64,000 nucleotides of DNA from Candidatus Staskawiczbacteria bacterium (GCA_903928565.1 CAIYRH010000015.1:11569-75568); one strand, 5' to 3'; counted from the stretch's first letter, positions 34,685 to 60,680 are shown. The notes: generated by a model from the letters alone, not told the origin. Numbers and translations: made by a program.

Positions 34685-35346
34685 TTTTATTCCCAGACGG
34701 CAACAGGCGCTGGGCAAAGCAAAAAGGTTTGCACACACTAGAAGGCCACAAAAAAGGCTATAATAATCTTTTAGACTTTTCTGAGTGGTGTAAAAATAAA
34801 GGTGTAAAAACGCTTACGGCTTTTGGCTTTTCAACAGAAAATTGGAATAGAACAGAAGAAGAAGTCACATATTTAATGAAACTTCTAGAAAATTGTTTAA
34901 TAGATAATTTATCAAAATATGAAAAAGAGGGGACTCGCGTTAGGGTAATTGGGCAACGCGACCGTTTGCCAAAATCTTTACAAGAAGCAATTATAAAAAC
35001 AGAAGAATTTACAAAAAATAATAATAAGTTATTTTTAAATTTGGCAATTAGTTATGGTGGCAAGTGGGATATTTTAAATGCTGTAAAAAATATTGTAAAA
35101 GAGGGGATTGATGCTGAAAAAATAGATGATAAGTTATTTGAAAGTCATTTATCTACAGCCGGTTTACCCGCACCCGATTTTATAATAAGAGCGGGTGGCG
35201 AAATGCGCCTTTCTAACTTTGTTTTGTGGCAGGCCGCCTATGCAGAACTATATTTTTCGCCAAAACTCTGGCCCGATTTTAATGAAGAAGATTTAGACAT
35301 TGCCTTAACAGAATTTGACCACCGCCACCGCCGTTTTGGCAAATAA
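34660..35346 (+). CDS. uppS: undecaprenyl-diphosphate synthase
   Basis: DGNRRWA, FSTENW, IRAGGEMRLSNF. Confidence 0.93.
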   Translation: MEHIPQHIVLFPDGNRRWAKQKGLHTLEGHKKGYNNLLDFSEWCKNKGVKTLTAFGFSTENWNRTEEEVTYLMKLLENCLIDNLSKYEKEGTRVRVIGQRDRLPKSLQEAIIKTEEFTKNNNKLFLNLAISYGGKWDILNAVKNIVKEGIDAEKIDDKLFESHLSTAGLPAPDFIIRAGGEMRLSNFVLWQAAYAELYFSPKLWPDFNEEDLDIALTEFDHRHRRFGK

Positions 35347-35357
35347 AACCTTTAAAA

Positions 35358-35382
35358 ACGCCCTTTGTCTGGGCGTTTTTTT
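35358..35382 (+). terminator. rho-independent terminator after uppS
   Basis: ACGCCC-tttgtct-GGGCGT followed by T7. Confidence 0.85.
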
Positions 35383-35384
35383 GT

Positions 35385-35879
35385 TTAACAGTTTTTGGAG
35401 AAGGCTTTGGCCATTTCAAGCCATTTAGGAGTGCGGGGGTTGTTTTTATATTTTGCCGAAGACTTATGAATTTCCATAAGCATGCAAACTTCGTTTTTTT
35501 TCCATTCAGCCAAATTTTTACCTTTGTTTTTGTAAAGTATTTCAACCGCTTTTGTCCAAAGGTTAAAATCGCTTTTCTTTTTGTTTGCTAAAACGTTTTT
35601 TTTAAAAAATGGCACAATAATTTGTGCTACATCGGCAATCTTTTGAACAGAAAACCTTGCTTGATCTTTTGAAACAGAAATTTCTCCGCAACCTAATATT
35701 TTTTTTATTTTCTGTAATGTTTTTATTTCGTTTTTATTGGCAGTAACAACAAATTGGGTTTTCCAGCGGTAGTAAGTGGGGGAGTTGGTTCTTTCATGTC
35801 TGGTGTCTTTTCTAAATTGCAAATCGAAACAGCCATCGTTATTTACTATTGTTGGAATATTAAATTTTTCTTTTGCCAT
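35385..35879 (-). mobile_element. free-standing LAGLIDADG-family homing endonuclease gene (single-motif, N-terminally short)
   Basis: 164 aa. IVNNDGCFDLQF is a degenerate LAGLIDADG/GDGCF motif. LGCGEI, IIVPFFKKN and KKKSDF fit the family pattern. An in-frame stop lies 8 codons upstream of the ATG. Confidence 0.65.
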
Positions 35880-35926
35880 AAACCTGTTTAATTATTTTTA
35901 TATAGTTAAAGTATACCAAAAACATA

Positions 35927-35938
35927 ATTGTGCGACAA
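35927..35938 (+). repeat. Box A 12-mer ATTGTGCGACAA (copy 1)
   Basis: Exact 12-mer, shared with 40310, 42140 and 44042 (reverse complement). Confidence 0.85.
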
Positions 35939-36010
35939 GGGCTGTGAATATCTGATATTGCGTTTAATTTTCCATTTGTTATCATACAGATAATAATTAA
36001 AAAGAAGTTT

Positions 36011-37060
36011 ATGATAATAAATCAAAAAACATATGCAGTAGAAAGTGTAACATTGGGCCACCCCGACAAAGTTTGCGACCAAATTTCAGATGCAATTTTA
36101 GATGCATGTTTGGCGCAAGACCCAAATTCAAGAGTTGCAGTTGAGTCTTTTGGCGGGCACGGCACGTTAGTTATTGGTGGAGAGGTAACAACAACAGCCA
36201 AAGTTGATTACCAAGCAATTGCTGATAAAGTTTACAAAGATATTGGTTACACTCAGGAATTAAAATTTATGGTGAATGTTGTGCAACAGTCACCCGACAT
36301 TGCCATGGGCGTTGACACCGGCGGAGCTGGCGACCAGGGAATTATGTATGGTTATGCTACAAATGCGACACCCGAATATATGCCTTGGGCAGTTGTAAAA
36401 GTGCACGCGTTGGCAAAGGGTTTGCAAGATTTAAGGGAAAGTGGCCAGGTGAAATGGTTAATGCCCGATGGTAAGTCGCAGATAACAATGCAAGATGGAA
36501 AAGTAAAAAATGTTTTAATTAGCACCCAACATGATGCAAATGTCTCGCAAGAAGAAATTAAGCAAACTTTAATTGAGAAATTAATTAAACCAATTTTGGG
36601 AGATGTTGTGGGCGTAGACATATTTGTTAACCCAACCGGAAACTTTGTACAGGGTGGGTTTGAAGCCGACACGGGTTTAACCGGCAGAAAAATTATGGTT
36701 GATACTTATTGCGGTTTAATTTCTCATGGAGGTGGAGCATTTTCTGGAAAAGATCCAAGTAAGGTTGACCGCTCGGCCGCCTACATGGCGCGGTTTGCAG
36801 CAAAAAATATTGTTGCTAATGGTTATGCAAAAGAATGTTTGGTTTCTGTGGCTTATGCAATTGGAATGGCCGAGCCATTAATGGTTTCTGCAGTTGATGA
36901 AAATGGAAAAAGTTTAGATGAAATAATTGCAAAGTTTGATTTTAAGCCGCAATCTATTATTAAAACCCTAGAATTAAAACAACCTATTTACCAAAAAACA
37001 GCAGCTTACGGCCATTTTGGTAAAGCCGACCTCCCCTGGGAAAAAATCATAAAAATCTAA
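36011..37060 (+). CDS. metK: S-adenosylmethionine synthetase (short form)
   Basis: GHPDKVCDQISDAILDA, GAGDQG, GGGAFSGKD. Confidence 0.9.
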   Translation: MIINQKTYAVESVTLGHPDKVCDQISDAILDACLAQDPNSRVAVESFGGHGTLVIGGEVTTTAKVDYQAIADKVYKDIGYTQELKFMVNVVQQSPDIAMGVDTGGAGDQGIMYGYATNATPEYMPWAVVKVHALAKGLQDLRESGQVKWLMPDGKSQITMQDGKVKNVLISTQHDANVSQEEIKQTLIEKLIKPILGDVVGVDIFVNPTGNFVQGGFEADTGLTGRKIMVDTYCGLISHGGGAFSGKDPSKVDRSAAYMARFAAKNIVANGYAKECLVSVAYAIGMAEPLMVSAVDENGKSLDEIIAKFDFKPQSIIKTLELKQPIYQKTAAYGHFGKADLPWEKIIKI

Positions 37061-37123
37061 ATAGACTTGCTTGTTTTCTAGAAAAGAGTAAAAATAAAGA
37101 ATATATAATTAAACTACAAAAAC

Positions 37124-37891
37124 ATGGATTCAATTTTATTTTATGCATTGTGGATTTTATTTTTAATTTTAGTTTCGGGAATTCGTGTCATTAAAGAATA
37201 CGAAAGAGCGGTAATTTTCTTTTTGGGAAAACAAACTGCCATTAGGGGCCCTGGGCTTATATTTTTAGTGCCGGTTTTTGAAAAAATGGTGAAGGTTAGT
37301 TTTAGAACAATTACAATGGGCATTCCTTCGCAAAAAATTATTACAAAAGACAATGTGTCCATAGACATTGCCGCCGTAGCCTATTACCACATTGTAGACC
37401 CGCGTAAAGCTGTTATTGCCATTGAAGATGTCTTTAGCGCCGTAAACCAAATAAGCCAAACAACAGTTAGAAATGTGGTTGGGCAATTTATGTTAGACCA
37501 GTTGCTTTCGCAAACCGCCGACATTAACGAGCAAATTAAAAATGTTATAGATGGCCACACCGAGCCTTGGGGCGTGCAGGTAACCGCCGTTGAAATTAAA
37601 GATATTATTTTGCCAGACAACATGCAACGCGCCATGGCAAAAGAAGCCGAGGCCGAAAGGGAGAGACGTGCAAAAATTGTTGCTGCTCAAGGAGAATTTC
37701 AAGCTGCCGAAAAGTTGGGCCAAGCCGCCGATTTAATTGCCGCCCACCCGGTTGCATTGCAATTGCGAACACTCCAAACAATGTCTGAAATTGCCACCGA
37801 AAAGAATTCAACAATTATTTTCCCGGCTCAATTTATGACAACAGTTAAAGAAGCTTTAGAAACCATCCGTGGCGACAGCAAAAAGTCGTAG
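37124..37891 (+). CDS. SPFH/band-7 (stomatin-like) protein
   Basis: N-terminal TM segment, IKEYERAV.F.LGK, and an EAEAERERRAKI coiled-coil. Confidence 0.88.
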   Translation: MDSILFYALWILFLILVSGIRVIKEYERAVIFFLGKQTAIRGPGLIFLVPVFEKMVKVSFRTITMGIPSQKIITKDNVSIDIAAVAYYHIVDPRKAVIAIEDVFSAVNQISQTTVRNVVGQFMLDQLLSQTADINEQIKNVIDGHTEPWGVQVTAVEIKDIILPDNMQRAMAKEAEAERERRAKIVAAQGEFQAAEKLGQAADLIAAHPVALQLRTLQTMSEIATEKNSTIIFPAQFMTTVKEALETIRGDSKKS

Positions 37892-37893
37892 AT

Positions 37894-39210
37894 TTATGAG
37901 ACTTCGCCTAGGAAGATGGGTATGGCAAGGCGGCGGCGTTTTGTTTCGCCGCGCAGAAGATTATTTTTCCTTTCTGGAGCATCGCCTCGATCTCCTATGT
38001 GTTGAGCAAATTTGTGTGCCTGAAAACTTGCACCAAGAAAGAGAGTATGCTTTCCATATTTTTCACGAACAACATCAACAGCCTCATAAAGATGCGTAAG
38101 ATTTTGTTTTTTGTTTATTGCGCCAAATAAATCAAGTTGAGAATAATTTTGTTCGTCTAATCCAAAAAGCATAATGCCAGTTGAGCGGTAAAGTTCGTTG
38201 GCGTTAAATATTTTTTCAAATGCCGGTTTAATTGCACAAATTACGTCATTCGGTATAGCGGTGGGCGTGGCAAATTTAATTTCCATTCCACAATCTTTAA
38301 AACTTTGAGTTCGTAAAATAATTATTCCACCTTTTGCTGATAGCCCATATTTTCTGGCCTTAATTGTCGCATTTTCAATGTTTTTGCAAAGTTGAGCAAA
38401 TACAAAAGTTTTATTTTTTGATGGCGGTGAAAAGGTTTTAAATTTTTGAATTGATTGATAATTATTTTTTGGTTCGGCATCAATTTTTTTTATATATTTT
38501 CCGTTAAGTTCTTGCCATATTTCGTAGTGTGGTTTTGTAAAATATTTCTTTACCCATTCTTCGGGTTTTCTAGCAAATTGAAGTGCTGTTGTAACGCCCA
38601 GTTTTGCAAGCAAGGCGGTTGTTTGGCCGCCAACGCCCCATATTTTTTCTATTGGTAAATTTTCAAGATATAAATGAATTGAAATAGCGGGAACAACCGT
38701 AAGCCCCGACGGTTTTTTCCATTTAGATGCAAGCTTGGCAACAACTTTGTTGGGCGCTAAACCAACAGAAAATGTAAAACCAAGTTCTAAATCTAGCGAG
38801 TGCTTAATTTCTTCTGCAATTTTGTCGTAAGACATTCTTAGTGGCCGTTGAAGCCCAGTTATGTCGGCAAAACATTCATCAATTGAATATTCTTCAACGT
38901 CGGGGGTAAAGCGTCTCACAATGTTAAAAAATCTTTTTGAAAGCAGGCTATATGTTTCGTAGTCCGAGGGAAGCAAAACCGCATCGGGGCAAATTTTCAT
39001 TACTTCAGACAAACGCATTGCTCGTGTTACACCACGTGCTTTTGCTTCGTAGCTCATAGACGAAACAATCCCACGTTCTTTGCCGGTAATTACTGGTTTT
39101 CCTTTTAATTTGGGGTTTCTTGATTGCTCACACGAAGCAAAAAAAGCATCGCCATCTATGTGTAGAATTGCTTGAGGAAATCCACCAAGTGACAGTGGCC
39201 TATTTTTCAT
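37894..39210 (-). CDS. Y-family DNA polymerase (DinB/UmuC-like) with a GC-rich C-terminal tail
   Basis: HIDGDAFFASCE, YSIDECFADITG and an HhH region. 438 aa. Its start abuts the lexA stop. Confidence 0.88.
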   Translation of the reverse strand: MKNRPLSLGGFPQAILHIDGDAFFASCEQSRNPKLKGKPVITGKERGIVSSMSYEAKARGVTRAMRLSEVMKICPDAVLLPSDYETYSLLSKRFFNIVRRFTPDVEEYSIDECFADITGLQRPLRMSYDKIAEEIKHSLDLELGFTFSVGLAPNKVVAKLASKWKKPSGLTVVPAISIHLYLENLPIEKIWGVGGQTTALLAKLGVTTALQFARKPEEWVKKYFTKPHYEIWQELNGKYIKKIDAEPKNNYQSIQKFKTFSPPSKNKTFVFAQLCKNIENATIKARKYGLSAKGGIIILRTQSFKDCGMEIKFATPTAIPNDVICAIKPAFEKIFNANELYRSTGIMLFGLDEQNYSQLDLFGAINKKQNLTHLYEAVDVVREKYGKHTLFLGASFQAHKFAQHIGDRGDAPERKNNLLRGETKRRRLAIPIFLGEVS

Positions 39211-39211
39211 A

Positions 39212-39781
39212 TTAATATTTTCTTATTACTGCTTTTACTATAGCTCCAATTGTTAAAGATTCTTCTGGATATAAATTTTTAAATTTTTCGTTAGCTGGTT
39301 CAAGCCAAATTTTATTGCCTTGTTTTTTGTAATATTTAATTGTCCAATCGCCATCAATTTGCGCAATAACAATGTCTCCATCTTTTGCATTTGTTCCTTT
39401 TTCTACAAGGGCCATGTCACCCTCTAAAATGCCAGCGTCTTTCATTGAGTCGCCCTTAATGGTTAAAATATATGTTGCTTCTTTGTTACGAATTAAAAAT
39501 TCATCAAGCGACATTGTGTCGTTTAATTCTTCGTCAGCTGGAGAGGGGAAGCCGGCTTCAACAATGCCAAGTTTGCGAATTTCGCTAAACAAAGATGTGG
39601 GCAAAATGTGCCCGGTTTTGTCTTTGTTAATGTAGCCCGCGTCAACAAGCCGTAAAACAAGTTTGTAAACTGCGTTTTTTGATTTTAAACCAACAAGCAA
39701 CCCAAGCTCGCTATAACTTGGCATTCTTTTTTTTGTTTGATAAAAACCTTGCAACTTGCTAACTATTATTTGTTTTTCCAT
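39212..39781 (-). CDS. lexA: LexA repressor (wHTH plus S24 peptidase)
   Basis: N-terminal wHTH and C-terminal GDSM...K dyad (KGDSMKDAGI, WTIKYYKK). The ATG at 39781 is preferred because an SOS box and a -10 element lie just upstream. Confidence 0.85.
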   Translation of the reverse strand: MEKQIIVSKLQGFYQTKKRMPSYSELGLLVGLKSKNAVYKLVLRLVDAGYINKDKTGHILPTSLFSEIRKLGIVEAGFPSPADEELNDTMSLDEFLIRNKEATYILTIKGDSMKDAGILEGDMALVEKGTNAKDGDIVIAQIDGDWTIKYYKKQGNKIWLEPANEKFKNLYPEESLTIGAIVKAVIRKY

Positions 39782-39796
39782 ACATATATTATATAT

Positions 39797-39808
39797 GAAC
39801 GAACGTTC
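39797..39808. promoter_or_regulatory. SOS (Cheo-type) box GAACGAACGTTC within the lexA promoter spacer
   Basis: It fits GAAC-N4-GTTC. On the minus strand the arrangement is TTGTAG-17 nt (containing the box)-TATAAT, with the ATG 6 nt downstream (a leaderless-type arrangement). Confidence 0.7.
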
Positions 39809-39843
39809 ACCTACAAGCCCAGTTTTCCACACGGTATTTTATG

Positions 39844-39900
39844 TTGACTTTGTGCAAATTACGTTGTAATTTATATATACCCTCAACATGGTGTTGTGGG
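39844..39900 (+). promoter_or_regulatory. cassette E conserved promoter (TTGACT-17-TAATTT) plus 21-nt 5' leader hairpin
   Basis: Near-identical to 41353-41409. The hairpin CCCTCAACAtggTGTTGTGGG starts 36 nt after the start of the -35 element. Confidence 0.7.
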
Positions 39901-39933
39901 CGAACCTTAAAAATCCGTGGGAAGGAAATACAC

Positions 39934-40221
39934 ATGAAACTACAAGTAGGGCAAAGAAGTAAATCTAATCTCGCTCAAAAAGATGGGCTTGCATTAGTCA
40001 GATTTGTGGCATTTGGAATTGTGAAGCCAAGCCAAATAGTATTCAGGCATTCTTGCTTGGGCTGCAACGCATCGGTAGACATCAAACTATCCGAGACCGA
40101 CGACGGAAAAATTTGGCTGGAAGGCCCCGATTATTGTTCGCGATGTGGTGCCAGACTGACGCCTCAAGAGCCCAAAGCAAAGAAGTTAACTCAAAGACAG
40201 ATCAGCAACTACTTTGGATAA
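39934..40221 (+). CDS. small zinc-ribbon protein (95 aa), cassette E cargo
   Basis: CLGC...CSRC. GGAAGGA lies upstream of the ATG. GC-rich. Confidence 0.6.
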   Translation: MKLQVGQRSKSNLAQKDGLALVRFVAFGIVKPSQIVFRHSCLGCNASVDIKLSETDDGKIWLEGPDYCSRCGARLTPQEPKAKKLTQRQISNYFG

Positions 40222-40262
40222 CCAACCGCAATTAGGGTGAAGTACAGCTTCATCAACACCCC

Positions 40263-40288
40263 GAGAATCATCAAGGGGTTCTTTTTTT
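40263..40288 (+). terminator. cassette E terminator
   Basis: GAGAATC...GGTTCTT stem followed by a T-run. Homologous to 42099-42123. Confidence 0.65.
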
Positions 40289-40309
40289 GTTCCGTAATAT
40301 TTCTATTTT

Positions 40310-40321
40310 ATTGTGCGACAA
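40310..40321 (+). repeat. Box A 12-mer ATTGTGCGACAA (copy 2, within an 18-nt match TTTTATTGTGCGACAAAT)
   Basis: Exact match. It is followed by Box B TAGTCGGCT...GGTGCTT. Confidence 0.85.
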
Positions 40322-40401
40322 ATTTTACGCTAGTCGGCTTTAAATCGAGGTGCTTTTGGTGATATAATAAGTTAATTAGTTGAAGCATAAAAATTAAAAT
40401 T

Positions 40402-40764
40402 ATGGATGAAGAAGAAATAAAAAAGAAACTGACTCCCGCGCAATACAAAGTTTTGAGGGAGAAGGGGACAGAAGTCCCTTTTTCGGGGAAATATGTACAT
40501 AAAACAGAAGATGGAAGCTATGTTTGTATGGTGTGTGGTAACTTTTTATTTTCATCTGATGCTCAATTTGATTCTGGCACCGGTTGGCCAAGTTTTGATA
40601 AGGCCATTGAAGGGTCGGTTGAATATAAAGATGACCACGGAGCAACTGAGATAATTTGTTCAAACTGTAAATCTCATTTGGGGCATGTTTTTAATGATGG
40701 CCCAACAGAAACGGGAAAGAGATTTTGTATAAATTCGGTTTGCTTAAACTTAAAAAATAAATAA
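40402..40764 (+). CDS. msrB: peptide-methionine (R)-S-oxide reductase
   Basis: CxxC zinc site, GTGWPSF, CSNCKSHLGHVFNDGP. Confidence 0.92.
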   Translation: MDEEEIKKKLTPAQYKVLREKGTEVPFSGKYVHKTEDGSYVCMVCGNFLFSSDAQFDSGTGWPSFDKAIEGSVEYKDDHGATEIICSNCKSHLGHVFNDGPTETGKRFCINSVCLNLKNK

Positions 40765-40795
40765 AAAAAGGGATTTTTAGTTCCCTTGGTAAAAT

Positions 40796-41308
40796 ATGAT
40801 TACAGAAAAAGAAGCAGTGCAACTATTAGAAAGCATGGCTTCTGACAAAAATGTTAAACACTGTAGGGGCGTAGCAGAGGCGGCTTTTGAGTTGGCAACA
40901 AAAATTAAAAAGAAAAACTCGCAGCTGAATATTGATCCACTGAAGATTAAAATAGCTGCTTTATTGCATGACATTGGGAAGTGCAGGGAAGGCGTTCATG
41001 AATTGAATACAATAGAAATTCTTAAAAGGGAGGGGCTTGATGATATAGCTGACATTGCCATGCACGGATTTTTGTATGAGATATGTCTGTTGGAAGGTAA
41101 AAATACCCATGGGCTTTTGCCAAAAAATCTTGAAAACAAAATAGTTGTTTTAGCTGATATGTATTATAACCAAAAAGAAGAGCGGGTAAGCCTGGAGCAA
41201 AGATTTGAAGATATGGAAAGCAGATACGGTGATCTATTTTTAAAAGCAATACGTTTGGCAAAACCAAGAATGATAAAACTTGAAGAAGAAATTAGTAATT
41301 TAATTTAA
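40796..41308 (+). CDS. HD-domain (HDIG) phosphohydrolase
   Basis: HCRGVA, LLHDIGK. Confidence 0.75.
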   Translation: MITEKEAVQLLESMASDKNVKHCRGVAEAAFELATKIKKKNSQLNIDPLKIKIAALLHDIGKCREGVHELNTIEILKREGLDDIADIAMHGFLYEICLLEGKNTHGLLPKNLENKIVVLADMYYNQKEERVSLEQRFEDMESRYGDLFLKAIRLAKPRMIKLEEEISNLI

Positions 41309-41328
41309 TAATGTAAATAAATAAAAAA

Positions 41329-41351
41329 AGAGGGGATTGGCCTCTTTTTTT
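41329..41351 (+). terminator. rho-independent terminator after the HD gene
   Basis: AGAGG-ggattgg-CCTCT followed by T7. It abuts the cassette F -35 element. Confidence 0.75.
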
Positions 41352-41352
41352 A

Positions 41353-41409
41353 TTGACTTTTTGATATTTTTGTTTTAGTTTATATATACCCATAACACGG
41401 TGTTTTGGG
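41353..41409 (+). promoter_or_regulatory. cassette F conserved promoter (TTGACT-17-TAGTTT) plus 21-nt 5' leader hairpin
   Basis: Near-identical to 39844-39900. Hairpin CCCATAACAcggTGTTTTGGG. Confidence 0.7.
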
Positions 41410-41430
41410 CGAACCTTGAAAATATCAACG

Positions 41431-42060
41431 ATGAAAACACGATATTTATTGATTGCGCTTCTGTGCGCATTGACGCTTGGCTGCCAAAAGGCGCCGAAAA
41501 CAGAAGATGAAGCGTTTGGTGATTTTGCCAAGAGCGTTCTTGCGGCTGGGAAGGCAAAAGATTCTGGCACATTTATTAACAAGTTGAGTATGGCAAGTGT
41601 TGCCGACCTTAACGCTTTGGTTGAAGTGCTGAAAAAAGCAAATCTTCAGATTAGCCTTAATGAAAACGAGGAAAAGCCCACGGACGCCGAGATTCGGAAA
41701 GAAGCCGAAGCAAATGTGCGATTATTTATGGATTCATATGCCGACGTTTTTGAGGCCGATGGTATGCTTTCTTGCGTTGTAACTGCGCAAGATACAGAGA
41801 TAAAGGGAGCAAATGTTTATTCCATGATCATTTGGGCTAAACACAAAGACGGAAAATTTCGTGGGATCAAAATTGACAGCGCTTGGAAGAGAGATGACGG
41901 CACAATTAAGGTTATCACCTGGACACAGCTTGATGGCTACGCAGCAAGCAAGCATGCCTCCAAGAAGAAGGCTATTCTGGAGTGCGACACAGTTGAAGCC
42001 TGTGACTATCCAAACATGATAACGTATGAATATGTTTTCAGTAAATATGACATGAACTAG
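41431..42060 (+). CDS. lipoprotein (209 aa), cassette F cargo
   Basis: MKTRYLLIALLCALTLGC is a signal peptide with a lipobox. GC-rich. No family was recognised. Confidence 0.65.
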   Translation: MKTRYLLIALLCALTLGCQKAPKTEDEAFGDFAKSVLAAGKAKDSGTFINKLSMASVADLNALVEVLKKANLQISLNENEEKPTDAEIRKEAEANVRLFMDSYADVFEADGMLSCVVTAQDTEIKGANVYSMIIWAKHKDGKFRGIKIDSAWKRDDGTIKVITWTQLDGYAASKHASKKKAILECDTVEACDYPNMITYEYVFSKYDMN

Positions 42061-42098
42061 GCGAGCAATTGCTACTTGGTATGAACCCATTCTCACCC

Positions 42099-42123
42099 GA
42101 GAATCCTTAAGGGTTCTTTTTTT
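42099..42123 (+). terminator. cassette F terminator
   Basis: GAATCC-ttaa-GGGTTC followed by T7. Confidence 0.75.
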
Positions 42124-42139
42124 GTACGCCTAAATTTTT

Positions 42140-42151
42140 ATTGTGCGACAA
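42140..42151 (+). repeat. Box A 12-mer ATTGTGCGACAA (copy 3)
   Basis: Exact match. It is followed by the hairpin CATAACCGAC-caaatta-GTCGGTTATG and GGTGCTT, which ends 2 nt before the recombinase stop codon. Confidence 0.85.
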
Positions 42152-42197
42152 ATCTAACATTGCATAACCGACCAAATTAGTCGGTTATGGTGCTTAA

Positions 42198-43169
42198 TTA
42201 CGTCTTATCTGGGTCGGAATGAAACTGATGATGAATGTCACGCAAGCGTTTGTTTGTTACGTGCGTGTAAATTTGAGTGGTGGCGATATTTGAATGGCCA
42301 AGAAATTCTTGAATGCTTCGAAGGTCAACACCTTGGTTCATTAAATCTGTTGCATATGAATGTCTAAGTGTGTGAGGTGTGGTAAAAATTGGCACGCCTG
42401 AAAGTAATGCATATTTTTTAACCATGCGTTCAATAGATCTTGGCGTAAGCCGGGCATTTGTATCATCTTTTTTATCGCGAAAATTTATAAACAAAGCTTT
42501 TTGGTTGGCATGCGAAACATCATTTCTTATTTTAAGATAATCTTTAATAAAATTAATGGCACGTTCAGAAAAATAAACAACGCGCGGTTTTCCGCCCTTT
42601 CCAATAACTCCAAGTTCCATGTCCCTTTTTTCTTTCAAACTATTAAACTGTTCAAGGTTGAGTGAAACCAATTCGGCAATGCGCAAACCAGTTGAGAAAA
42701 AGGATTCTAAAATAGCCCTGTCGCGGGTGGTTATGTTGTCTTTAGGCTCTATAGAGGCCAAAAGCTTACTAACTTGGTCCAGGGTAAGGAATTTAACGCT
42801 TTTTAGCGCTCTATCGGCCTTTGCAAGGGCTATTTTGTCTGGGGGCAGTGAAAGTACGTCTTTTGCCACAAAGTAGCCTAAAAAAGCTCTTAGAGCGATT
42901 AAATAGTAGTTTTGGGTGCCCTTAGATAGCAATTTACCGGTGGCTGGGCTTGGGGTGCGGGAAAGGTATAAACGATAGGTCCAAATATGGTCTGCGGTTA
43001 ATTGATGGGGGAGCAGAAGGTCATTTTTGCTCTCGGCGAGCCAATAAAAAAACTTAATTAAATAATTTTTATAATTCTCTTGAGTATTTTTTCTTAAACC
43101 TTTTTCAACTTCACAAAAGTCTAAAAAATCTTGTAGATGTTCTTTAATTGGTTTTGATGATTTTTGCAT
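42198..43169 (-). CDS. tyrosine site-specific recombinase (XerC/XerD-like integrase family)
   Basis: SAM-like N-terminal domain. Catalytic residues in RIAEL, HTLRHSYAT, LGHSNIATTQIYTHV. Confidence 0.88.
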   Translation of the reverse strand: MQKSSKPIKEHLQDFLDFCEVEKGLRKNTQENYKNYLIKFFYWLAESKNDLLLPHQLTADHIWTYRLYLSRTPSPATGKLLSKGTQNYYLIALRAFLGYFVAKDVLSLPPDKIALAKADRALKSVKFLTLDQVSKLLASIEPKDNITTRDRAILESFFSTGLRIAELVSLNLEQFNSLKEKRDMELGVIGKGGKPRVVYFSERAINFIKDYLKIRNDVSHANQKALFINFRDKKDDTNARLTPRSIERMVKKYALLSGVPIFTTPHTLRHSYATDLMNQGVDLRSIQEFLGHSNIATTQIYTHVTNKRLRDIHHQFHSDPDKT

Positions 43170-43436
43170 AGTTTTATTTAGGCCGCCTTATATAACGTCT
43201 CTTTACCTACATTTTGCGACATACTATATACCTCTATAATAGTCTCCCCTTGGGCTCAGGTCAAGACCTAATAATCCACAAAAGACGACCCAGGCATCAA
43301 TTTTGCTGGCGCATGCGTGCATAATAATTATTTACATCACTATTCCCCACACTTTTAGATATAATTTTAAAAAAATAATTTTTTATTTTTCTTAAATATT
43401 TTTCTAAATTATTTTTTTTCTTTCACTAGCACAAAT

Positions 43437-43988
43437 TTAACTGACTCTCCCCCATTTTGATGGATCTTCAATAAACTTGATATAAGCCTCGCGCAGAAGC
43501 TTGGCATCGTCTAAAGCGTTGTGTTGGTTATATTTAGAACGGTCAATGCCAAGTCTTTTAAGAAGTTCTGCATTATTTTCTGAATAATAAGCTGTGGGGT
43601 CTATTCCGTGTGCAAATAACATTGTTGCAAAATCAACGGAAACTAATTGAAAAGGGTTATCAATAGTGTCATCAACAGACATTAATAATTTTTGCCAGTA
43701 CATTGCATCATCTTGGTTTATGTAACCAACAGCGTAAGGCTTTGTATTACCAACAAATTCACTAATTTTTTTAACAGCTTCTTTTGCAGTAATGCGATTG
43801 CCTGTTAGAAAGGGCATCACGTGACTTTTAACCCAATCGCTGGCCTCCCCACTATATTCTAACTCTACATATAATTCTTCACCGGTAAATTTTACCAAGC
43901 CAATTGAAATTAGCTCGGCCTTGTTTGGGTCTAAACTAGTAAACTCAGTGTCAAAAAATATTATATTATCTGAAAATGGTTTTATCAT
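43437..43988 (-). CDS. DEDDh 3'-5' exonuclease
   Basis: FFDTEFTSLD (ExoI), YINQDDAM (ExoII-like), HNALDDAK (ExoIII). The ATG at 43988 is preferred over the GTG at 44003. Confidence 0.75.
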   Translation of the reverse strand: MIKPFSDNIIFFDTEFTSLDPNKAELISIGLVKFTGEELYVELEYSGEASDWVKSHVMPFLTGNRITAKEAVKKISEFVGNTKPYAVGYINQDDAMYWQKLLMSVDDTIDNPFQLVSVDFATMLFAHGIDPTAYYSENNAELLKRLGIDRSKYNQHNALDDAKLLREAYIKFIEDPSKWGRVS

Positions 43989-44041
43989 AATTGATGCCTG
44001 CACTGCTTGCGCTGAGCTTGCCGAAGAAAGCCATAGCCGAA

Positions 44042-44053
44042 TTGTCGCACAAT
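44042..44053 (-). repeat. Box A 12-mer (copy 4, reverse complement; full site ATTGTGCGACAAT)
   Basis: Exact 12-mer. It lies 3 nt after the stop of the 44057-44449 gene. In minus orientation it is followed by TCGGCTATGGC (Box B-like). Confidence 0.85.
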
Positions 44054-44056
44054 AAA

Positions 44057-44449
44057 CTATGCATTCTTAAAATAATTTATCAAATCCTCTGTATCTTTTG
44101 CTATATAGTCAAAAAAGGCTTTTCCCCATTCGCTGAACTCTCTAGTTTCTTCAACAGTTAATCCAACTACTTTTTTACCTAAAGCCTTTGCATATCCCGC
44201 TTCTAAGTATATTCCTCTAGTATCCGAAAGCGCCACTATAACTCCGTCGCAATTTCTTATGACCTCTAACTCTTTTTCCAATAAATCTTTTCCGGATAGG
44301 GATTGATCGGCATCTCTATACGGTAAGAATATTTTGATGCCAACTTCTTCTAATGCCTTGCAGAGCTTTTCGTTACGAGTTAGTTTTTTAAAATCTAACT
44401 CGTTGGTTCGGACGTTAACGTTAACGTGTGGAGTCGCAAAATAGTACAT
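44057..44449 (-). CDS. nucleoside 2-deoxyribosyltransferase-like (NDT/SLOG-fold) protein
   Basis: 130 aa. CDGVIVALSDTRGIYLEAGYAKALGKKVVGL resembles the D..GT..E.GyA.algKp motif. Confidence 0.55.
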   Translation of the reverse strand: MYYFATPHVNVNVRTNELDFKKLTRNEKLCKALEEVGIKIFLPYRDADQSLSGKDLLEKELEVIRNCDGVIVALSDTRGIYLEAGYAKALGKKVVGLTVEETREFSEWGKAFFDYIAKDTEDLINYFKNA

Positions 44450-44455
44450 ATATAT

Positions 44456-45985
44456 TTAATTTAACATTTTTATCGCGTCGTAAATGCGTTTTAGGGTTTT
44501 TTCTCGGCCTAAAATGTTGGCTATTTCAAATGGGCTGGGCGACATGTTTTTGCCCGAAAGAGCCACGCGTAATGGCCACAGCATGTAGCCTCTATTTTTT
44601 TCAGGGTAACCTTTTTCTAAATTAAATTTTTCTGCAACAGAAAACATTTCCGTTTCCATTACTTTTAAATCCCAATTTTTTATTTCACCCAATATTTTTT
44701 CTGACAACATTAGGGCATCTTTAACATCACTGTCCCCCATTTTCTGCCACCTCAATAATTCTTTTTCAAAAATTAATTTATCTTTAAAGAAAAAATCTGA
44801 AAGTTCTACAATGTCTGATAATTTTTTCATTCTGTTGCGCGACACTTCAACAATTTCCTGTAATTGATTTTGTGTCATTTGGCCAATTACCAGCAACCCC
44901 GTTTCTTTTAAATATGGCACGCAAAGCTCAGTTAATTTTTCTATTGATTTCTCGCGAATATAAAAACCATTTAGAAAGTCCAATCTTTGAATGTTAAAAA
45001 CAGCTCCTGCCTTTTGCACTTTTTCAATTGAAAATTCTTTTGCCAGTTGAGCTAGTGTAAAAACTTCTTTTTCTGTGCCCGGATTCCAGCCCAATAAAAC
45101 CATAAAGTTAACAATTGCCTCGGGTAAATAACCATTTTTATGGTAATCTGCAAGTGCAACATCGCCCTGTCGTTTTGAAAGCTTACTGCGGTCTGTGTTT
45201 AACATTAAGGGCAAATGAGCATATGTTGGTTGATAAAAATCTAAGGCTTGTTGAATTAATATTTGGCGAGGCGTATTAGGCAAATGTTCTTCGCCTCTAA
45301 TTACATGACTAATTTGCATTAAAAAGTCATCAACAACAACTGCAAAGTGATACAATGGGGCTTCCATATTTTTTGCAATAACAATGTCGCCCAGTAAATT
45401 GGCATCAAACTCTACTACCCCGCGCACTAAATCGGTAAATTTAACTTTGCTTGTGCCCCGAGGGGTATTATTTTCAATTTTAAATCTAATAACAGACGGT
45501 TCGCCACTTGCTAGTTTTTTTTCTACAACTTCTGGTGACAAATGAGTACAAGTGCGGTCGTATTTAGGAGCTAATCCCCTACTCATTTGCTCTTGTCTTT
45601 TATTTTCTAATTCTTCTTCTGTGCAAAAACAATAATATGCTTTTTTTTCTTCTAAAAGTTTTTCTAAATATTTTTTATAAATGTCAATTCTTTGCGACTG
45701 TTTATAGGGGCCAAAATTTCCGTCTATGTCTGGGCCTTCGTCCCAGGCAATCCCCAACCATTTTAATTCTTCTAGAATTTCGTCTGTCCATTTTTGTTCG
45801 CTTCTTTGAGTGTCGGTGTCTTCAATGCGTAAAATAAATTTGCCCTTATTTTGTTTGGCAAATAAATAATTAAACAACGCCGTGCGTGAACCGCCCACGT
45901 GAAGTGGCCCCGTTGGCGACGGCGCAAACCTCACTCTCACCGTCTTTGGCTCGATATTTTTTCCTGTTTTATTTTTTTTAATCAT
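44456..45985 (-). CDS. gltX: glutamate--tRNA ligase
   Basis: RFAPSPTGPLHVGG, KLSKRQG. Confidence 0.93.
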   Translation of the reverse strand: MIKKNKTGKNIEPKTVRVRFAPSPTGPLHVGGSRTALFNYLFAKQNKGKFILRIEDTDTQRSEQKWTDEILEELKWLGIAWDEGPDIDGNFGPYKQSQRIDIYKKYLEKLLEEKKAYYCFCTEEELENKRQEQMSRGLAPKYDRTCTHLSPEVVEKKLASGEPSVIRFKIENNTPRGTSKVKFTDLVRGVVEFDANLLGDIVIAKNMEAPLYHFAVVVDDFLMQISHVIRGEEHLPNTPRQILIQQALDFYQPTYAHLPLMLNTDRSKLSKRQGDVALADYHKNGYLPEAIVNFMVLLGWNPGTEKEVFTLAQLAKEFSIEKVQKAGAVFNIQRLDFLNGFYIREKSIEKLTELCVPYLKETGLLVIGQMTQNQLQEIVEVSRNRMKKLSDIVELSDFFFKDKLIFEKELLRWQKMGDSDVKDALMLSEKILGEIKNWDLKVMETEMFSVAEKFNLEKGYPEKNRGYMLWPLRVALSGKNMSPSPFEIANILGREKTLKRIYDAIKMLN

Positions 45986-46055
45986 TCTATTTTTTATTAT
46001 TTTCTCAGGTTAACATATGTTAACCTGGCTGACAATAAGCCCACTGGATGAAGTT

Positions 46056-47759
46056 TTATGCAAATTCCTGTTGGTAGCACTGTTCACAACAAATTATTTC
46101 TGGCCGTTCTGGGGCATAAGAGCTTTCAAATACATTCTGGCAATTCGGCTTCATACATGCACGGTGCCATAATTTAGGCGGATTGCGTTTTGCTAGCCTT
46201 TCATAATGGCGACAATTAGGGCAAGAAAGCGGCAAGGGTAATTTCATGCGCTTATAAAATTGAAGTTCTTCGGGCGTTATGCGAAATGCTGTTGTGCATT
46301 GATGTAGGCATTTGCCTTCGTGCGCGCACCCAATTACTTCTTTTGTAATTGCATCGGCGACATCTATTATTTTTGACGGCACGTCATTTGTATTTAGGGT
46401 GATGGAATAATTACGCCCCTCCGTTTCTTTCCAGTAAAATCCTGCATTAATTATTTCTTGTTGTGCTAAAGGAAAAAAATCGTGAGCAACAGATTCATTA
46501 TAGGCAAAGAGAGATAATTCTGCCGGAAAGAACTCTCCATATTTATATATTCGACCGTTTTTACCATTATACGGCAGATGGTCCATTTGAATTTTAATTT
46601 TTTCAATTAGAGATGCATATTCTTCTTTTGAATATTGCTTATTCAATATACAATATTGTTTATTTCGTAGACCCACGCAACCAAACAAATAAGATGAGCT
46701 TGAACAAAAATCAGAATATTCAACATTTGTGCATTCGCCACATGTGTTTGAGAATTTGCTATGAGCCATTTTCCAAAAACCAATATATTCGTAACAAAGT
46801 TCCAGGTGTTCGCAATAATTTGTATCATGCGTGTCTTTGGCATCAATCATTCTAATGCAATGGGCGCAATCTTCTGTGCGCTTAACGTCGAAACAAGCAC
46901 GGACATTTTTTGATTGTACTAAATAATCTCCGCTAACATAAGTGCAATGAAGTGTGCGTGCGAAACGATGTGGGACTTCTTGTTTTAACGATTCAAATTT
47001 AGATTGCACTTTTCCAAATTCGTCGCGCCCGCAGTCTAAAATTTTTTCTTTCTCAATCAAATATTTTTCTTTGCTAAATGCTTGATTAAAAATGTGATAT
47101 TTTTTATTGCGCAAACCTACACAACCAATACAGTCTTGGCAATTTTTACACGCGTAACAATATAATAAATTGAGTGACGCAGAGCAGTCTTGGCAAAAAG
47201 AACAATTAGATAATTTTTCGCAATCAACACATTCGTAACAGTATTCCGATTCACGAGCTAGATATGTATCAACGCAATATTTAGACTCATAGGGCGAACC
47301 GTACATACAATTTTCTATTTCAATGGAACCAAAACATAAATAACTATCTTTTGCGTCGGCAACATAATTGCAGTAGTCGCTGTTTTTCATATTAGTACAA
47401 CGCAAATTGGGACGCGGTACTTTGTTTTGCAATTCATGCATTTGCACAAAAAATGGTTTTTCAAAATCATATTCTGCGCCATGTTGCATTGGATCCCAAC
47501 TGTCACCCCACCAACACTCCGAACAAAAAACCGGAAACGGCTTATCTGCCGAATACATTGAAATAATACCTTTTTTACAAAGTTCACATTCGCGTTTATA
47601 AAAATTACGCTCGTTGCGCACCATAAGCCTACGTTGATAGCGACATGCTGGGCAAAAAGTTGGCGCGGGAACTTTCATTTTTTCATAAAACGCAAAATCA
47701 TCGGGTTCAATAGAAAAATTATTTTGGCAGTTTTGGCATTGATGGGCTTCTTGTTGCAT
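46056..47759 (-). CDS. cysteine-rich protein with terminal zinc-ribbon modules and internal Cys-ladder repeats
   Basis: 567 aa. The N- and C-terminal modules are homologous (C..C..F.I.P..F.FY.KM..P.P..CP.CR...R...RN). Internal duplication around CVGLRNK.Y.I.N...SKE.Y. Confidence 0.7.
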   Translation of the reverse strand: MQQEAHQCQNCQNNFSIEPDDFAFYEKMKVPAPTFCPACRYQRRLMVRNERNFYKRECELCKKGIISMYSADKPFPVFCSECWWGDSWDPMQHGAEYDFEKPFFVQMHELQNKVPRPNLRCTNMKNSDYCNYVADAKDSYLCFGSIEIENCMYGSPYESKYCVDTYLARESEYCYECVDCEKLSNCSFCQDCSASLNLLYCYACKNCQDCIGCVGLRNKKYHIFNQAFSKEKYLIEKEKILDCGRDEFGKVQSKFESLKQEVPHRFARTLHCTYVSGDYLVQSKNVRACFDVKRTEDCAHCIRMIDAKDTHDTNYCEHLELCYEYIGFWKMAHSKFSNTCGECTNVEYSDFCSSSSYLFGCVGLRNKQYCILNKQYSKEEYASLIEKIKIQMDHLPYNGKNGRIYKYGEFFPAELSLFAYNESVAHDFFPLAQQEIINAGFYWKETEGRNYSITLNTNDVPSKIIDVADAITKEVIGCAHEGKCLHQCTTAFRITPEELQFYKRMKLPLPLSCPNCRHYERLAKRNPPKLWHRACMKPNCQNVFESSYAPERPEIICCEQCYQQEFA

Positions 47760-47762
47760 TTT

Positions 47763-48881
47763 TTATTCTAGCATTAGGAATTCTAAAATTTCGCGGGCAA
47801 TTGCGCGAGCGGCTAAAGGTTTTGCAAACTTTAATGCCGATTGCCCCATTTGTTCTAATTTTTCTGGGTGTAAAAATAGCAATTGAACATTTTCCATAAA
47901 AAAATTAGGAGTTAAATTTTCTTGTTCAATAACCAATCCCGTGCCAGCTTCTGTGTAGGCATAAGCATTTTTTGCTTGGTGATCACCGCCTGAAATATTT
48001 GGCAATGGCACTAAAATGCATGGTTTACCAACTGCAGCAATTTCAAAAATTGAACTTGACCCCGAACGCGAAATAATTAAATCGGCGGCTTTATAGGCGT
48101 GCTTCATTTTTTCCTCATCTAAAAATCCAACCGGGTGATAATATTTATCTAGGTCTTTGTCTTCCATAACCTGAGCTTCGGCTGAAACCTCTTTTACATT
48201 TTGACTTCCGGTAACGTGTATAACTTCGTAATTTTTTAAGAGGTCGTTTATAATTCTTAAAATAAAATCGTTAATTGTTTCGGCACCTTGCGAGCCACCT
48301 ATTACTAAAAATATTGGTTTTGAAAGGGTTAAATTGAATAGCTCAACAGCTTTGTCTTTGCTTCCTTGTAAAATTTCCGCTCTTATGGGGTTGCCAACGA
48401 GAGTTGTTGCGTTTGGGTCAAAATATTCTGTTTTAGGAAAAGAAATAAATATTTTTTTTGCCCATTTGGCGGTAATTTGGTTAGACCTGCCTGGGGCAAC
48501 ATCGGACTCGTGCACAAATACAGGAATTCTTAGCAACCAACATGGCAAAGTTACGCAAACTGAGCTTGTACCACCTTTGCTGAAAACTAAATCTGGTTTT
48601 ATGATTAGTAATAGAAAAAAACTTTGTATTACGCCAAAAGGAATTTTAAAACAAATATCTATGAAATTTTGAAATGAAAAATATCTTCTAATTTTCCCAG
48701 AAACGATTGTTTTTATTATAAAATCTTCTTGCGAAAGCAAAATTAAGCTAAACTCGTCTTTTGGACCAACGTAATAAAATTGTAAATCTTTTTTTGGATA
48801 AATTCTTCTTATTTCACGGGCAATGGAAACTAAAGGAAGAATGTGTCCGGCAGAACCTCCGCCAGTAAATAATAATTTCAT
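47763..48881 (-). CDS. murG: undecaprenyldiphospho-muramoylpentapeptide beta-N-acetylglucosaminyltransferase
   Basis: TGGGSAGHILP, GGSQGA. Confidence 0.9.
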   Translation of the reverse strand: MKLLFTGGGSAGHILPLVSIAREIRRIYPKKDLQFYYVGPKDEFSLILLSQEDFIIKTIVSGKIRRYFSFQNFIDICFKIPFGVIQSFFLLLIIKPDLVFSKGGTSSVCVTLPCWLLRIPVFVHESDVAPGRSNQITAKWAKKIFISFPKTEYFDPNATTLVGNPIRAEILQGSKDKAVELFNLTLSKPIFLVIGGSQGAETINDFILRIINDLLKNYEVIHVTGSQNVKEVSAEAQVMEDKDLDKYYHPVGFLDEEKMKHAYKAADLIISRSGSSSIFEIAAVGKPCILVPLPNISGGDHQAKNAYAYTEAGTGLVIEQENLTPNFFMENVQLLFLHPEKLEQMGQSALKFAKPLAARAIAREILEFLMLE

Positions 48882-48883
48882 AA

Positions 48884-50011
48884 TTATGTTGTATTTTTAG
48901 AAATATTTAATAAAAGCCCCATACCAATTAATTCAACGGCCAAGTGCGTGCCACCATAAGAAAAAAATGGCAATGGAATGCCTGCCAGCGGGAAAACTCC
49001 TGCAACTGAAGCCATATTAACAAATGCTTGAAGAGTTATCCATGACACAATGCCCGTTGCAACCATTTGAGAAAATTTGTCGTTTGAATTTTTAGCAATT
49101 TTAATTCCTTGCCAAATTAATAAAGCAAATGCAGTAATTAAAACAATGCAACCAATCATGCCCAATTCTTCACCAATTATTGCAAAAATGGAATCAGACA
49201 TAGACATGGGCAAAATAGATTTTAACGTTGACATTCCCAGGCCTTTTCCAAAAAAACCGCCAGAGCCCAAAGAAAGCAACGATTGGCGAAGTTGCAACCC
49301 TTTGCCAAGTGGATCGGTGTTTGGGTGCAAAAAAATTAATAAACGGGCTGCGCGGTAAGGTTCGAATTTTATGAACAAAAAAGCCAAAACAGCTCCGCCG
49401 GTCATTAACAAAATTGTATGCCATAAAGGAGTTTTTGCCGAAAAATAAATTGCAAGCAAGGTCAGCGTAATTATGCCAAGAGTACTTAAATCGCTTTGCA
49501 TAATTAAAACAGACGCAATTAATCCCAAAAAAACAATGAAAGGTACAAGAATGTATATTATGTTATGATAACCTTTTTTTGTTATGGATTTCCAGTCTGA
49601 AGCACTGTTTTCCGACAATTTTGAGGCAATCCATGCCGACAAGTACAAAATTGCTGTTATTTTTAAAAATTCCGATGGTTGAAAACTTAAACTGCCAATT
49701 CCAATCCACCTGCTAGCACCGCCAGATTTAGAGCCAATTCCAGGTATAAATGCTAGTGACAGGGCCAAAATATTTAAAATAACTAATAAGGGCGCCCATT
49801 TTTTTATTAATTGTAAAGAAATTGTAAAAGCAATCAAACCTAAAACTATTCCAGGCAACAGCCCTGAAAGTAATTGGTGAATTAAATAATAATTAGTGTT
49901 GCCAAACCTTTGCAATGAATCTGGTGCCGAAAGACAAACCAAAAATATAAAACTAAAACCCACCAAGAATATTATTAAAGACAATAAAAAATAATTAATT
50001 TTTCCTTTCAT
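48884..50011 (-). CDS. ftsW: SEDS-family peptidoglycan polymerase FtsW/RodA
   Basis: 10-TM profile, FQPSEF, DSIFAIIGEELG, PLPFFSYGG. Confidence 0.9.
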   Translation of the reverse strand: MKGKINYFLLSLIIFLVGFSFIFLVCLSAPDSLQRFGNTNYYLIHQLLSGLLPGIVLGLIAFTISLQLIKKWAPLLVILNILALSLAFIPGIGSKSGGASRWIGIGSLSFQPSEFLKITAILYLSAWIASKLSENSASDWKSITKKGYHNIIYILVPFIVFLGLIASVLIMQSDLSTLGIITLTLLAIYFSAKTPLWHTILLMTGGAVLAFLFIKFEPYRAARLLIFLHPNTDPLGKGLQLRQSLLSLGSGGFFGKGLGMSTLKSILPMSMSDSIFAIIGEELGMIGCIVLITAFALLIWQGIKIAKNSNDKFSQMVATGIVSWITLQAFVNMASVAGVFPLAGIPLPFFSYGGTHLAVELIGMGLLLNISKNTT

Positions 50012-50016
50012 ATTTA

Positions 50017-51333: not shown

Positions 51334-51365
51334 TGTATAATATTGAATTATAGCAAATTTTGGGG

Positions 51366-51398
51366 TTAAATCAAACCGCCCCCTTTTTATGGGGGCGG
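51366..51398 (-). terminator. rho-independent terminator after the surface-protein gene
   Basis: CCGCCCCC-7 nt-GGGGGCGG followed on the minus strand by TTTGATTT. Confidence 0.7.
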
Positions 51399-51412
51399 AG
51401 TTTGGAATATTT

Positions 51413-52903: not shown

Positions 52904-52956
52904 AAAAATAATTAATACAATACTATACCATTTGCCATAAATGGCGTCAATATAAT

Positions 52957-53688: not shown

Positions 53689-53690
53689 GT

Positions 53691-55702: not shown

Positions 55703-55709
55703 TTTGCGA

Positions 55710-60679: not shown

Positions 60680-60680
60680 T

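Follow-up and report, generated by a model that had tools for sequence, protein, structure and literature searches.

The stretch of DNA considered here (the window, 64,000 nt) comes from Candidatus Staskawiczbacteria, a group of Parcubacteria within the candidate phyla radiation (CPR), as judged from loci recovered with its MetK protein, to which the MetK of L003 and L004 is 93% identical and that of L005 84%. Our subject is a sequence of 12 nt, ATTGTGCGACAA, that recurs on both sides of a gene for a tyrosine recombinase of the Xer family (xer) and of an adjoining candidate for dif, the chromosome-dimer resolution site. The window contains exactly four copies of it, at 35927, 40310 and 42140 on the plus strand and at 44042 on the minus strand, where 0.02 are expected; none of the 100 dinucleotide shuffles that set the chance level reached four. 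The four copies lie inside 8 kb and the remaining 56 kb hold none, which bears out the claim of the first-pass annotation that such clustering is beyond chance. Sequences with a single mismatch elsewhere in the window (12237, 24540, 55184 and 60301) are inside long open reading frames (ORFs), at a frequency near the chance level. The exact copies are all intergenic, and it is in this sense, though in no wider one, that they lie at element boundaries, as had been proposed. The features concerned are the following.

35385-35879, minus strand: free-standing LAGLIDADG endonuclease-like gene, 164 amino acids (Pfam LAGLIDADG_1, 7.8e-15)
35927-35938, plus strand: copy 1, the outermost putative half-site, an exact match; 7.3 kb left of the candidate dif, between the LAGLIDADG gene (minus) and metK (plus)
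40310-40321, plus strand: copy 2, putative half-site preceded by TTTT; 2.9 kb left of the candidate dif, between the terminator of expression cassette E and the msrB promoter
42140-42151, plus strand: copy 3, the innermost left putative half-site, between the terminator of expression cassette F and the xer 3' hairpin
42164-42188, plus strand: hairpin ATAACCGAC-N7-GTCGGTTAT, just past the xer stop codon (fold of -9.7 kcal/mol, z = -5.1)
42198-43169, minus strand: xer, gene for an Xer-family tyrosine recombinase of 323 amino acids (Pfam Phage_integrase, 3.9e-38, and SAM-like N-terminal domains)
43195-43222, minus strand: candidate dif, ATGTCGCAAAA-TGTAGG-TAAAGAGACGT, 28 bp with an 11-6-11 layout; its left arm is 43212-43222 when read on the plus strand
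43236-43264, minus strand: promoter-like site TTGACC-17-TATTAT, upstream of the candidate dif and xer
44042-44053, minus strand: copy 4, the innermost right putative half-site, 820 nt from the candidate dif and opposite in orientation to copies 1-3

The recombinase matches the NCBIfam models of XerD (6e-66) and XerC (3.6e-65) over its full length, in both cases below the equivalog cut-off; the models of integron integrases and of XerS score far lower. It is the only tyrosine recombinase in the 64-kb window, in which no paralogue of it was found by tblastn. Relatives were obtained from a metagenome scan with the recombinase protein, which gave 80 loci (70 clusters at an xer nucleotide identity of at least 95%, 783 kb in total) with flanks of ±10 kb around xer. 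When 62 distinct xer upstream regions are aligned, one strongly conserved block stands out, A(T/C)GTCGCAAAATGTAGGTAAA(G/C)CGAC(G/A)T, and the consensus of these regions also carries a TTGAC(A/C)-17-TATTAT promoter. The 28-bp element so defined lies 25-45 nt before the ATG of xer in about 70 of the 73 loci with enough sequence, and is thus located between the promoter and the start codon. In its consensus, ATGTCGCAAAA-TGTAGG-TAAAGCGACGT, the left arm and the centre do not vary, whereas the right arm does; the copy in the window has one mismatch to the consensus. An imperfect version of the 12-mer, TTTGCGACA at 43213, had been noted upstream of the recombinase gene; it is real, corresponds to TTTTGCGACAT at 43212-43222 and forms one arm of this element.

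The element has the two imperfect inverted arms of ~11 bp that characterize a dif site, around a centre within the usual 6-8 bp. It does not fold as single-stranded DNA, and it is not an RNA hairpin because the variants of the right arm fail to preserve pairing. For the comparison with E. coli we used the established sequence of its dif, and computed the identities. Ten of 11 positions agree between CGCAAAATGTA and the E. coli CGCATAATGTA, and in distant lineages, as in L225 (element GGTTCGCATAA-TTATAG-TTAAGCGCACC), both arms are identical at 10 of 11 positions to the E. coli XerC arm, GGTGCGCATAA; no match of the arms to the E. coli XerD arm, TTATGTTAAAT, was found. An xer gene that directly adjoins its site is known from XerS/difSL (PMC5357621) and from some archaea (PMC11840125). 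The 28-bp block is read as a candidate dif because of its 11-6-11 layout, its position at the terminus (see below), its likeness to a XerC arm and the adjoining xer gene, as in XerS/difSL.

With XerS/difSL, XerH/difH and archaeal XerA the present system has in common a single Xer gene linked to its site in a module at the terminus (PMC5357621; PMC11840125). It differs from them in its 11-6-11 layout, in having two XerC-like arms and in a protein that fits the XerD and XerC models best, and not XerS. We know of no description of flanking half-site arrays for any of these systems. Two other candidates for dif were considered. The hairpin at 42164-42188 was rejected as dif; it is present in few loci (L003, L160, L166 and L203) and most have ordinary terminators instead. 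It is probably the terminator of xer and stands outside the array. The second, an 18-mer, AGAATGTATATTATGTTA at 49548, which resembles a canonical dif, lies inside an FtsW/RodA-like ORF, and its third codon positions drift in relatives. The surrounding match to the 28-bp consensus (AGGTACAAGAATGTATATTATGTTATGA, 49541-49568) shares a 16-mer with the dif of E. coli; this likeness is a chance match in coding sequence and could mislead dif predictors.

Left of ~43200 the GC skew of the window is +0.114 and beyond that point -0.062, and the cumulative G-C maximum is at 43020, 175 nt from the candidate dif. Long ORFs number 36 on the plus strand and 7 on the minus strand to the left of the element, and none and 19, respectively, to the right. 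In all 27 long loci among the relatives the skew likewise flips at xer (+0.088 versus -0.103). Because skew and gene orientation converge there, the recombinase gene marks the replication terminus, and the window spans it. A check had been proposed of whether the sites mark breakpoints in GC content or synteny; the cluster does indeed sit at the switch in GC skew.

In the relatives the motif was counted as TT[GA]TGCGACA, which occurs 250 times in the 783 kb around xer, compared with 2.95 times in shuffled sequence. A profile built on 246 unique contexts from the xer-anchored metagenome loci shows that the true motif is a ~15-mer, TTTTATT(G/A)TGCGACA, with G in 80% and A in 20% at the variable position, followed by a weak A-A-T. 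The arms TTGT and ACAA had been taken for a dyad. The motif is asymmetric, since just 58% of contexts have the final A of ACAA while the T-tract and A at the 5' end are conserved. Some 77% of the copies are intergenic, although crude ORF calls label 90% of this DNA as coding; in L003-L005, too, the core of the motif is found only between genes, within the interval from uppS to gltX. A 14-mer query to public collections was dropped, as a scan of viral sequences gave more than 120 single random matches.

With loci oriented on xer and copies made unique, 85 of 85 copies upstream of the gene are on the plus strand and 132 of 136 downstream of it are on the minus strand, so that 217 of 221 obey a mirror polarity about the recombinase. 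Copies are found on both sides in 45 of the 70 xer clusters, 42 of them perfectly mirrored, and the mirror persists in the most distant lineages, in which Xer is 56-59% identical. The window conforms to it, with copies 1-3 on one strand at the left and copy 4 on the other strand at the right. The motif is densest close to xer, with 0.8-1.6 copies per kb in the first kilobase, and thins out to 0.04-0.3 per kb at distances of 5-10 kb; loci with full flanks have on average 2.2 copies upstream and 3.0 downstream of the gene (±10 kb). An inverted copy follows within 1 kb of the xer stop codon in 46 of 52 loci (median 54 nt), and a direct copy precedes xer within 1.5 kb in 38 of 44 (median 630 nt). 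The restriction of copies to ~10 kb of dif is drawn from the one 64-kb window and the ±10 kb flanks of the relatives. The exceptions to the polarity are rare, and include an inverted pair of copies ~75-80 nt apart just after xer with a short unrelated segment between them (L181, ~10490-10580; L209, ~1180-1275).

These orientations bear directly on the proposal that the motif is an operator. Two copies precede genes connected with methionine (copy 1 by 72 nt in the case of metK, and copy 2 by 80 nt in that of msrB, the promoter of which is at 40339-40368), and the first-pass annotation had suggested a dimeric regulator. A regulon for methionine or oxidative stress, comprising metK, msrB and, in a relative, msrA, would agree with the distance of 41 nt from the motif to an extended -10 box at both genes, with a copy 65 nt before msrA in L004 and with another site of 41-nt spacing in L003. 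The strand of a copy, however, is set by the side of dif on which it lies and is indifferent to the genes around it: of the genes that flank copies on the 3' side, 94 run in the direction of the motif and 92 against it, and each of the four configurations of flanking genes is common. The motif lacks the symmetry expected for a dimer, the genes downstream of it are unrelated across loci, and the 246 contexts together give no -10 signal where one would be expected. Copy 3 lies in a convergent intergenic region and, like its orthologues (that of L003 is at 14302), has no gene downstream. The operator of such a regulon is thus a highly improbable role for the motif, and one that the data largely refute.

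Related proposals fared no better. An activator site near -60, suggested by a spacing of 40-41 nt to an extended -10 at metK, msrB, 11101 in L003 and msrA in L004, is lost in the 246-context profile. The 12-mer was also considered, and rejected, as an SOS (LexA) box; the LexA-like gene of the window has its own Cheo-type box, GAACGAACGTTC at 39797, in its promoter. An RNA element was rejected as well, the copies being 3' of intrinsic terminators, 5' of promoters and without a fold. The second box that had been described as a companion of the motif does not accompany it in general: TCGGYT follows in 12 of the 246 contexts and derives from two unrelated flanks. At copy 3 it is an arm of the hairpin at 42164-42188, at copy 4 it is part of a distinct GC-rich stretch, and the match at copy 2 is loose. 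The GC-rich stretch, of ~45 nt ((A/C)TTCGGCT...GCTCAG.GCAGGCAGATTG, 43992-44041 on the minus strand), adjoins the dif-facing side of some copies of the motif on either flank of xer, and is found beside the copy that follows xer in L155, L157, L161, L162, L173, L190, L192 and L149; it has no significant fold (z = 0.9).

What the motif does resemble is one arm of dif. Its reverse complement, TGTCGCACAAT followed by AAAA, agrees with the conserved arm of the 28-bp element and its junction, TGTCGCAAAAT followed by GTAGG, at 10 of the 11 arm positions, and the A-variant, TGTCGCATAAT, has CGCATAA in common with the XerC arm of E. coli. The profile of the 246 contexts is flat beside the motif, with no second arm conserved; each copy is accordingly regarded as a half-site. 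On both flanks it is in every case the outer end of the site (TGTCGC) that points to dif, the A-tract at the inner end pointing the other way. Of the two roles suggested by the first-pass annotation, a core site for the adjacent tyrosine recombinase therefore appears to have named the right protein but the wrong type of site. On balance we hold it probable, if by no great measure, that the copies of the motif constitute an array of Xer-binding half-sites flanking dif at the terminus. The motif, its polarity, its place at the terminus and its likeness to the dif arm are observed; that Xer binds it, and what the array does, we infer.

The proposed mechanism is that the motif, corresponding to a single binding arm of dif that stands by itself, would bind one Xer monomer which, for want of a partner arm, would not recombine, and that the half-site would instead act as a directional protein roadblock or landing pad. 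A motor leaving dif would meet the strongly blocking outer face, and one heading toward dif the weaker inner face. The array would therefore be permissive inward and restrictive outward, because the outer faces all point to dif, and would in this follow the principle of the Tus-Ter fork trap (PMC10331603); it might keep FtsK, and perhaps also SMC complexes or replication forks, within the zone around dif, and would enrich Xer near the site. The target motor may be FtsK, SMC or the replisome, or the main effect may be just to hold Xer close to dif. There is a precedent in Graham et al. 2010 (PMC2800217): FtsK is stopped by a lone XerD monomer bound to half of dif, or by a Cre monomer bound to half of loxP, and the stop is 3-5 fold more effective when the motor arrives at the outer face. 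This roadblock offers a physical reason for the orientation of half-sites, although it was observed on engineered substrates in vitro, whereas the arrays considered here are natural and have their outer faces toward dif.

Several points weigh against this interpretation. The similarity to the dif arm amounts to 10 of 11 positions over a short sequence, the half-site is better conserved across lineages than the dif arms themselves, and co-variation between half-site and dif arm is weak. Because of this weak co-variation the binder could be a different protein, either a second Xer paralogue encoded elsewhere in the genome or the LAGLIDADG protein. Four of the 221 unique copies violate the polarity rule. 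The assignment of the 28-bp element as dif rests on architecture, position and similarity, and it is from the behaviour of Cre and of E. coli XerD that we extrapolate which face, if any, would stop which motor.

The closest known parallels are the XerD-binding sites of Bacillus subtilis and the half-site roadblock observed in vitro. Karaboja et al. 2021 (Mol Cell) reportedly found that XerD of B. subtilis, bound at sites in the terminus other than dif, unloads SMC without catalysis and without XerC. Sites specific for XerD in the termini of B. subtilis and Staphylococcus aureus are said in the same study to resemble one half of dif and to act without recombination. Their likeness to the present motif lies in being recombinase sites of half-dif type in the terminus region, apart from dif itself. 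Here, by contrast, there is apparently a single Xer, with dif beside its gene, and the sites are packed into ~10 kb and not spread over hundreds of kilobases; the polarity, a possible further difference, is a near-perfect mirror, and one copy is embedded in a promoter. B. subtilis XerD is also described, in passages of PMC12322038, PMC11840125 and PMC9564211, as a sequence-specific unloader of SMC at the terminus. The array is most simply viewed, by analogy, as a compact and polar version of such accessory Xer sites.

Strand-specific motifs that switch at dif, and become denser toward it, are also familiar as FtsK-orienting polar sequences (KOPS) and architecture-imparting sequences (AIMS). 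The polarity of the present motif fits this pattern, but, as far as the window shows, it lacks the genome-wide spread along the leading strand that is typical of KOPS. These are 8-mers that occur throughout the genome, within genes as well, whereas the motif is a ~15-mer, is intergenic and has no copy in the 56 kb that remain of the window when the 8-kb cluster is set aside; it also resembles a recombinase arm rather than a site for FtsK-gamma.

The resemblance to a dif arm could instead reflect integration of gene cassettes at dif by Xer, in the manner of integrons or of integrative mobile elements exploiting Xer (IMEX), the copies being either scars or active sites. This would explain why the gene content is variable: among genomes with MetK 93% identical, the interval from uppS to gltX at the terminus (35000-44500 in the window) is hypervariable between syntenic flanks, as it is when L003, L004 and L005 are compared with the window. 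One block of homology begins 4 nt before copy 3, and the ends of alignments accumulate at both edges of the motif. The search for crossover points from these ends was, however, not decisive, as they accumulate at both edges and not inside the motif, and such clustering is equally expected for any conserved island in a diverged spacer. Only a single arm is present, and the central GTAGG of dif is not retained. Known core sites such as att, lox and attC have two arms or a hairpin in each copy; here there is neither, with no significant fold as single-stranded DNA and none of the attC-like hairpin type. Successive integrations should leave complete sites, or scars that keep the central region, repeated in the same direction on one side of the active dif and with their outer faces turned from it; the copies observed are mirrored about dif and face the other way, and the essential gene metK lies between those that are direct repeats. 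IMEX and the pdif modules of Acinetobacter are comparable in that variable sets of genes, on plasmids or close to dif, have dif-like sequences at their borders, but those sequences are complete two-arm sites in direct or alternating order, and these are half-sites only, in mirrored order. We therefore regard cassette integration as distinctly unlikely to be the origin of the array; the terminus region being a known hot spot for gene flux, the motif may have a minor role in rearrangements.

Within the interval from uppS to gltX, the window has an SPFH gene, an SOS module, msrB with an HD-domain gene, a nucleoside deoxyribosyltransferase-like (NDT) gene and an exonuclease gene; relatives have msrA, a restriction-modification pair and a GAF protein. 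Copy 4 is 3 nt past the NDT gene and 50 nt before the exonuclease gene, which is of the DEDD type. On the right replichore arm (44456-64000) there follow gltX and a cluster for division and the cell wall (murG, an ftsW-like gene, a Mur ligase gene and one for an FtsQ-like POTRA protein), every gene of which is on the minus strand.

A replication fork trap likewise has polar sites in opposed groups on the two sides of the terminus, and the motif might accordingly be a Ter-like terminator bound by Xer or by another protein. Two such groups on either side of the skew switch are the defining layout of Tus-Ter and RTP-Ter (PMC10331603), and the occurrence of one site within the promoter of an adjacent gene is reminiscent of TerB and tus. 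Among the ~29 proteins of the window scanned with Pfam, however, there is no Tus or RTP domain, and the coincidence of skew switch and dif, being found in most bacteria with or without a trap, is undiagnostic. Monomers of a tyrosine recombinase are not known to block the replisome. Moreover, the proposal overlaps with that of the Xer-binding array and differs from it only in the motor that is blocked. As with Tus-Ter and RTP-Ter, the sites are asymmetric, stand in opposed groups and have the innermost near or in the promoter of an adjacent gene (PMC10331603); they differ in being derived from dif, and in extending over kilobases rather than hundreds of kilobases. A role as a Ter-like terminator is, on this evidence, very unlikely.

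The promoter in question is that of the LAGLIDADG gene (35938-35910, minus strand; TTGTCG-17-TATACT with an upstream TG), the -35 hexamer of which, TTGTCG, is supplied by the reverse complement of copy 1. The arrangement is kept in L003, L004 and L005, in the last of which the gene is not beside metK. Of the 80 metagenome loci, 32 have a homologue of the gene, invariably on one side of xer and on one strand with respect to it, and often directly after it. In 28 of these the core promoter and the motif overlap, the motif either forming the -35 element or lying in the spacer between a separate TTGAC(A/T) and the -10, and such overlap in two registers argues for an operator. The protein that binds the half-site probably represses the LAGLIDADG gene; binding at this core promoter, or at dif between the promoter and the start codon of xer, would repress transcription. 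Linkage of the gene to xer extends over lineages with Xer 56-91% identical (L149-L228), and in L228 it starts ~35 nt after xer. The LAGLIDADG protein may be a partner of Xer, a selfish endonuclease or itself the binder of the half-site.

The main rival reading, which draws on these observations, takes the motif to be recognized by the LAGLIDADG protein and not by Xer, the protein acting either as an autoregulated DNA-binding protein, comparable to Tus at TerB or RTP at TerI, or as a homing endonuclease. The overlap with the gene's core promoter is operator-like and appears to be under selection, the linkage to xer holds even in L228, the most distant lineage, and the catalytic Asp of the LAGLIDADG motif (NNDGCF) is retained. 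On the other hand, the motif matches both the dif-like arm and the canonical XerC arm, which points to Xer, and LAGLIDADG homodimers normally read pseudo-palindromes of ~20 bp, whereas the site here is asymmetric. Arrays are present in L182, L184, L198 and L223, which have full 10-kb flanks and no LAGLIDADG homologue, and four to eight intact targets in its own genome would make an active nuclease self-destructive. We consider it unlikely that the LAGLIDADG protein is the one for which these sites exist.

Should the half-sites bind Xer, they would be a natural counterpart of the orientation-dependent roadblock formed by recombinase monomers in vitro, and the idea of XerD as an unloader of SMC in B. 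subtilis would be extended to the candidate phyla radiation, a group whose chromosome biology is, to our knowledge, essentially unstudied. From the closest known parallels the array differs in the single Xer module, the compaction, the strict mirror polarity and the embedding in a promoter. A more speculative extension, which we put forward tentatively and regard as possible rather than likely, is that the Xer of CPR bacteria of this lineage serves as a structural, non-catalytic protein and that the mirrored array is a one-way gate around dif. With the same reserve, an organism whose genome is below 1 Mb might in this way trap FtsK, SMC or replication forks in the zone of its terminus with neither Tus nor RTP, and the LAGLIDADG protein might be controlled by the sites or cooperate with them. 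A site of 15 bp and a protein of 323 amino acids would allow a test of whether the machinery of dimer resolution can by itself build the organization of a terminus. Whatever its function, the mirror polarity is a strong signature obtainable from sequence alone, one that can serve as a marker for dif and the terminus in metagenome bins of CPR organisms and as an aid in orienting and checking assemblies. It also removes two misreadings that such loci invite, as an integron-like array of cassettes and as a methionine regulon.

Some other features of the interval deserve brief mention. The SOS module (37894-39832, minus strand) consists of a gene for a LexA-like S24 peptidase followed by one for a Y-family polymerase; its Cheo-type box, at 39797-39808, is in the spacer of a TTGTAG-17-TATAAT promoter, and the module is absent from L003-L005. 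The metK leader of relatives contains a SAM-I riboswitch (RF00162, 51 bits; 9860-9963 in L003, and also in L004); in the window, the 72-nt leader (35939-36010) gave no riboswitch match. Finally, the two expression cassettes (39837-40290 and 41346-42125) are paralogous, having in common a TTGACT promoter, a terminator (CCCGAGAATC..GGGTTCTTTTTTT) and a 5' leader of ~50 nt that contains a 9-bp hairpin (identity of 81% over 78 nt), and carry unrelated ORFs, one for a Cys-rich protein of 95 amino acids and the other for a lipoprotein of 212; a putative half-site follows each of them.

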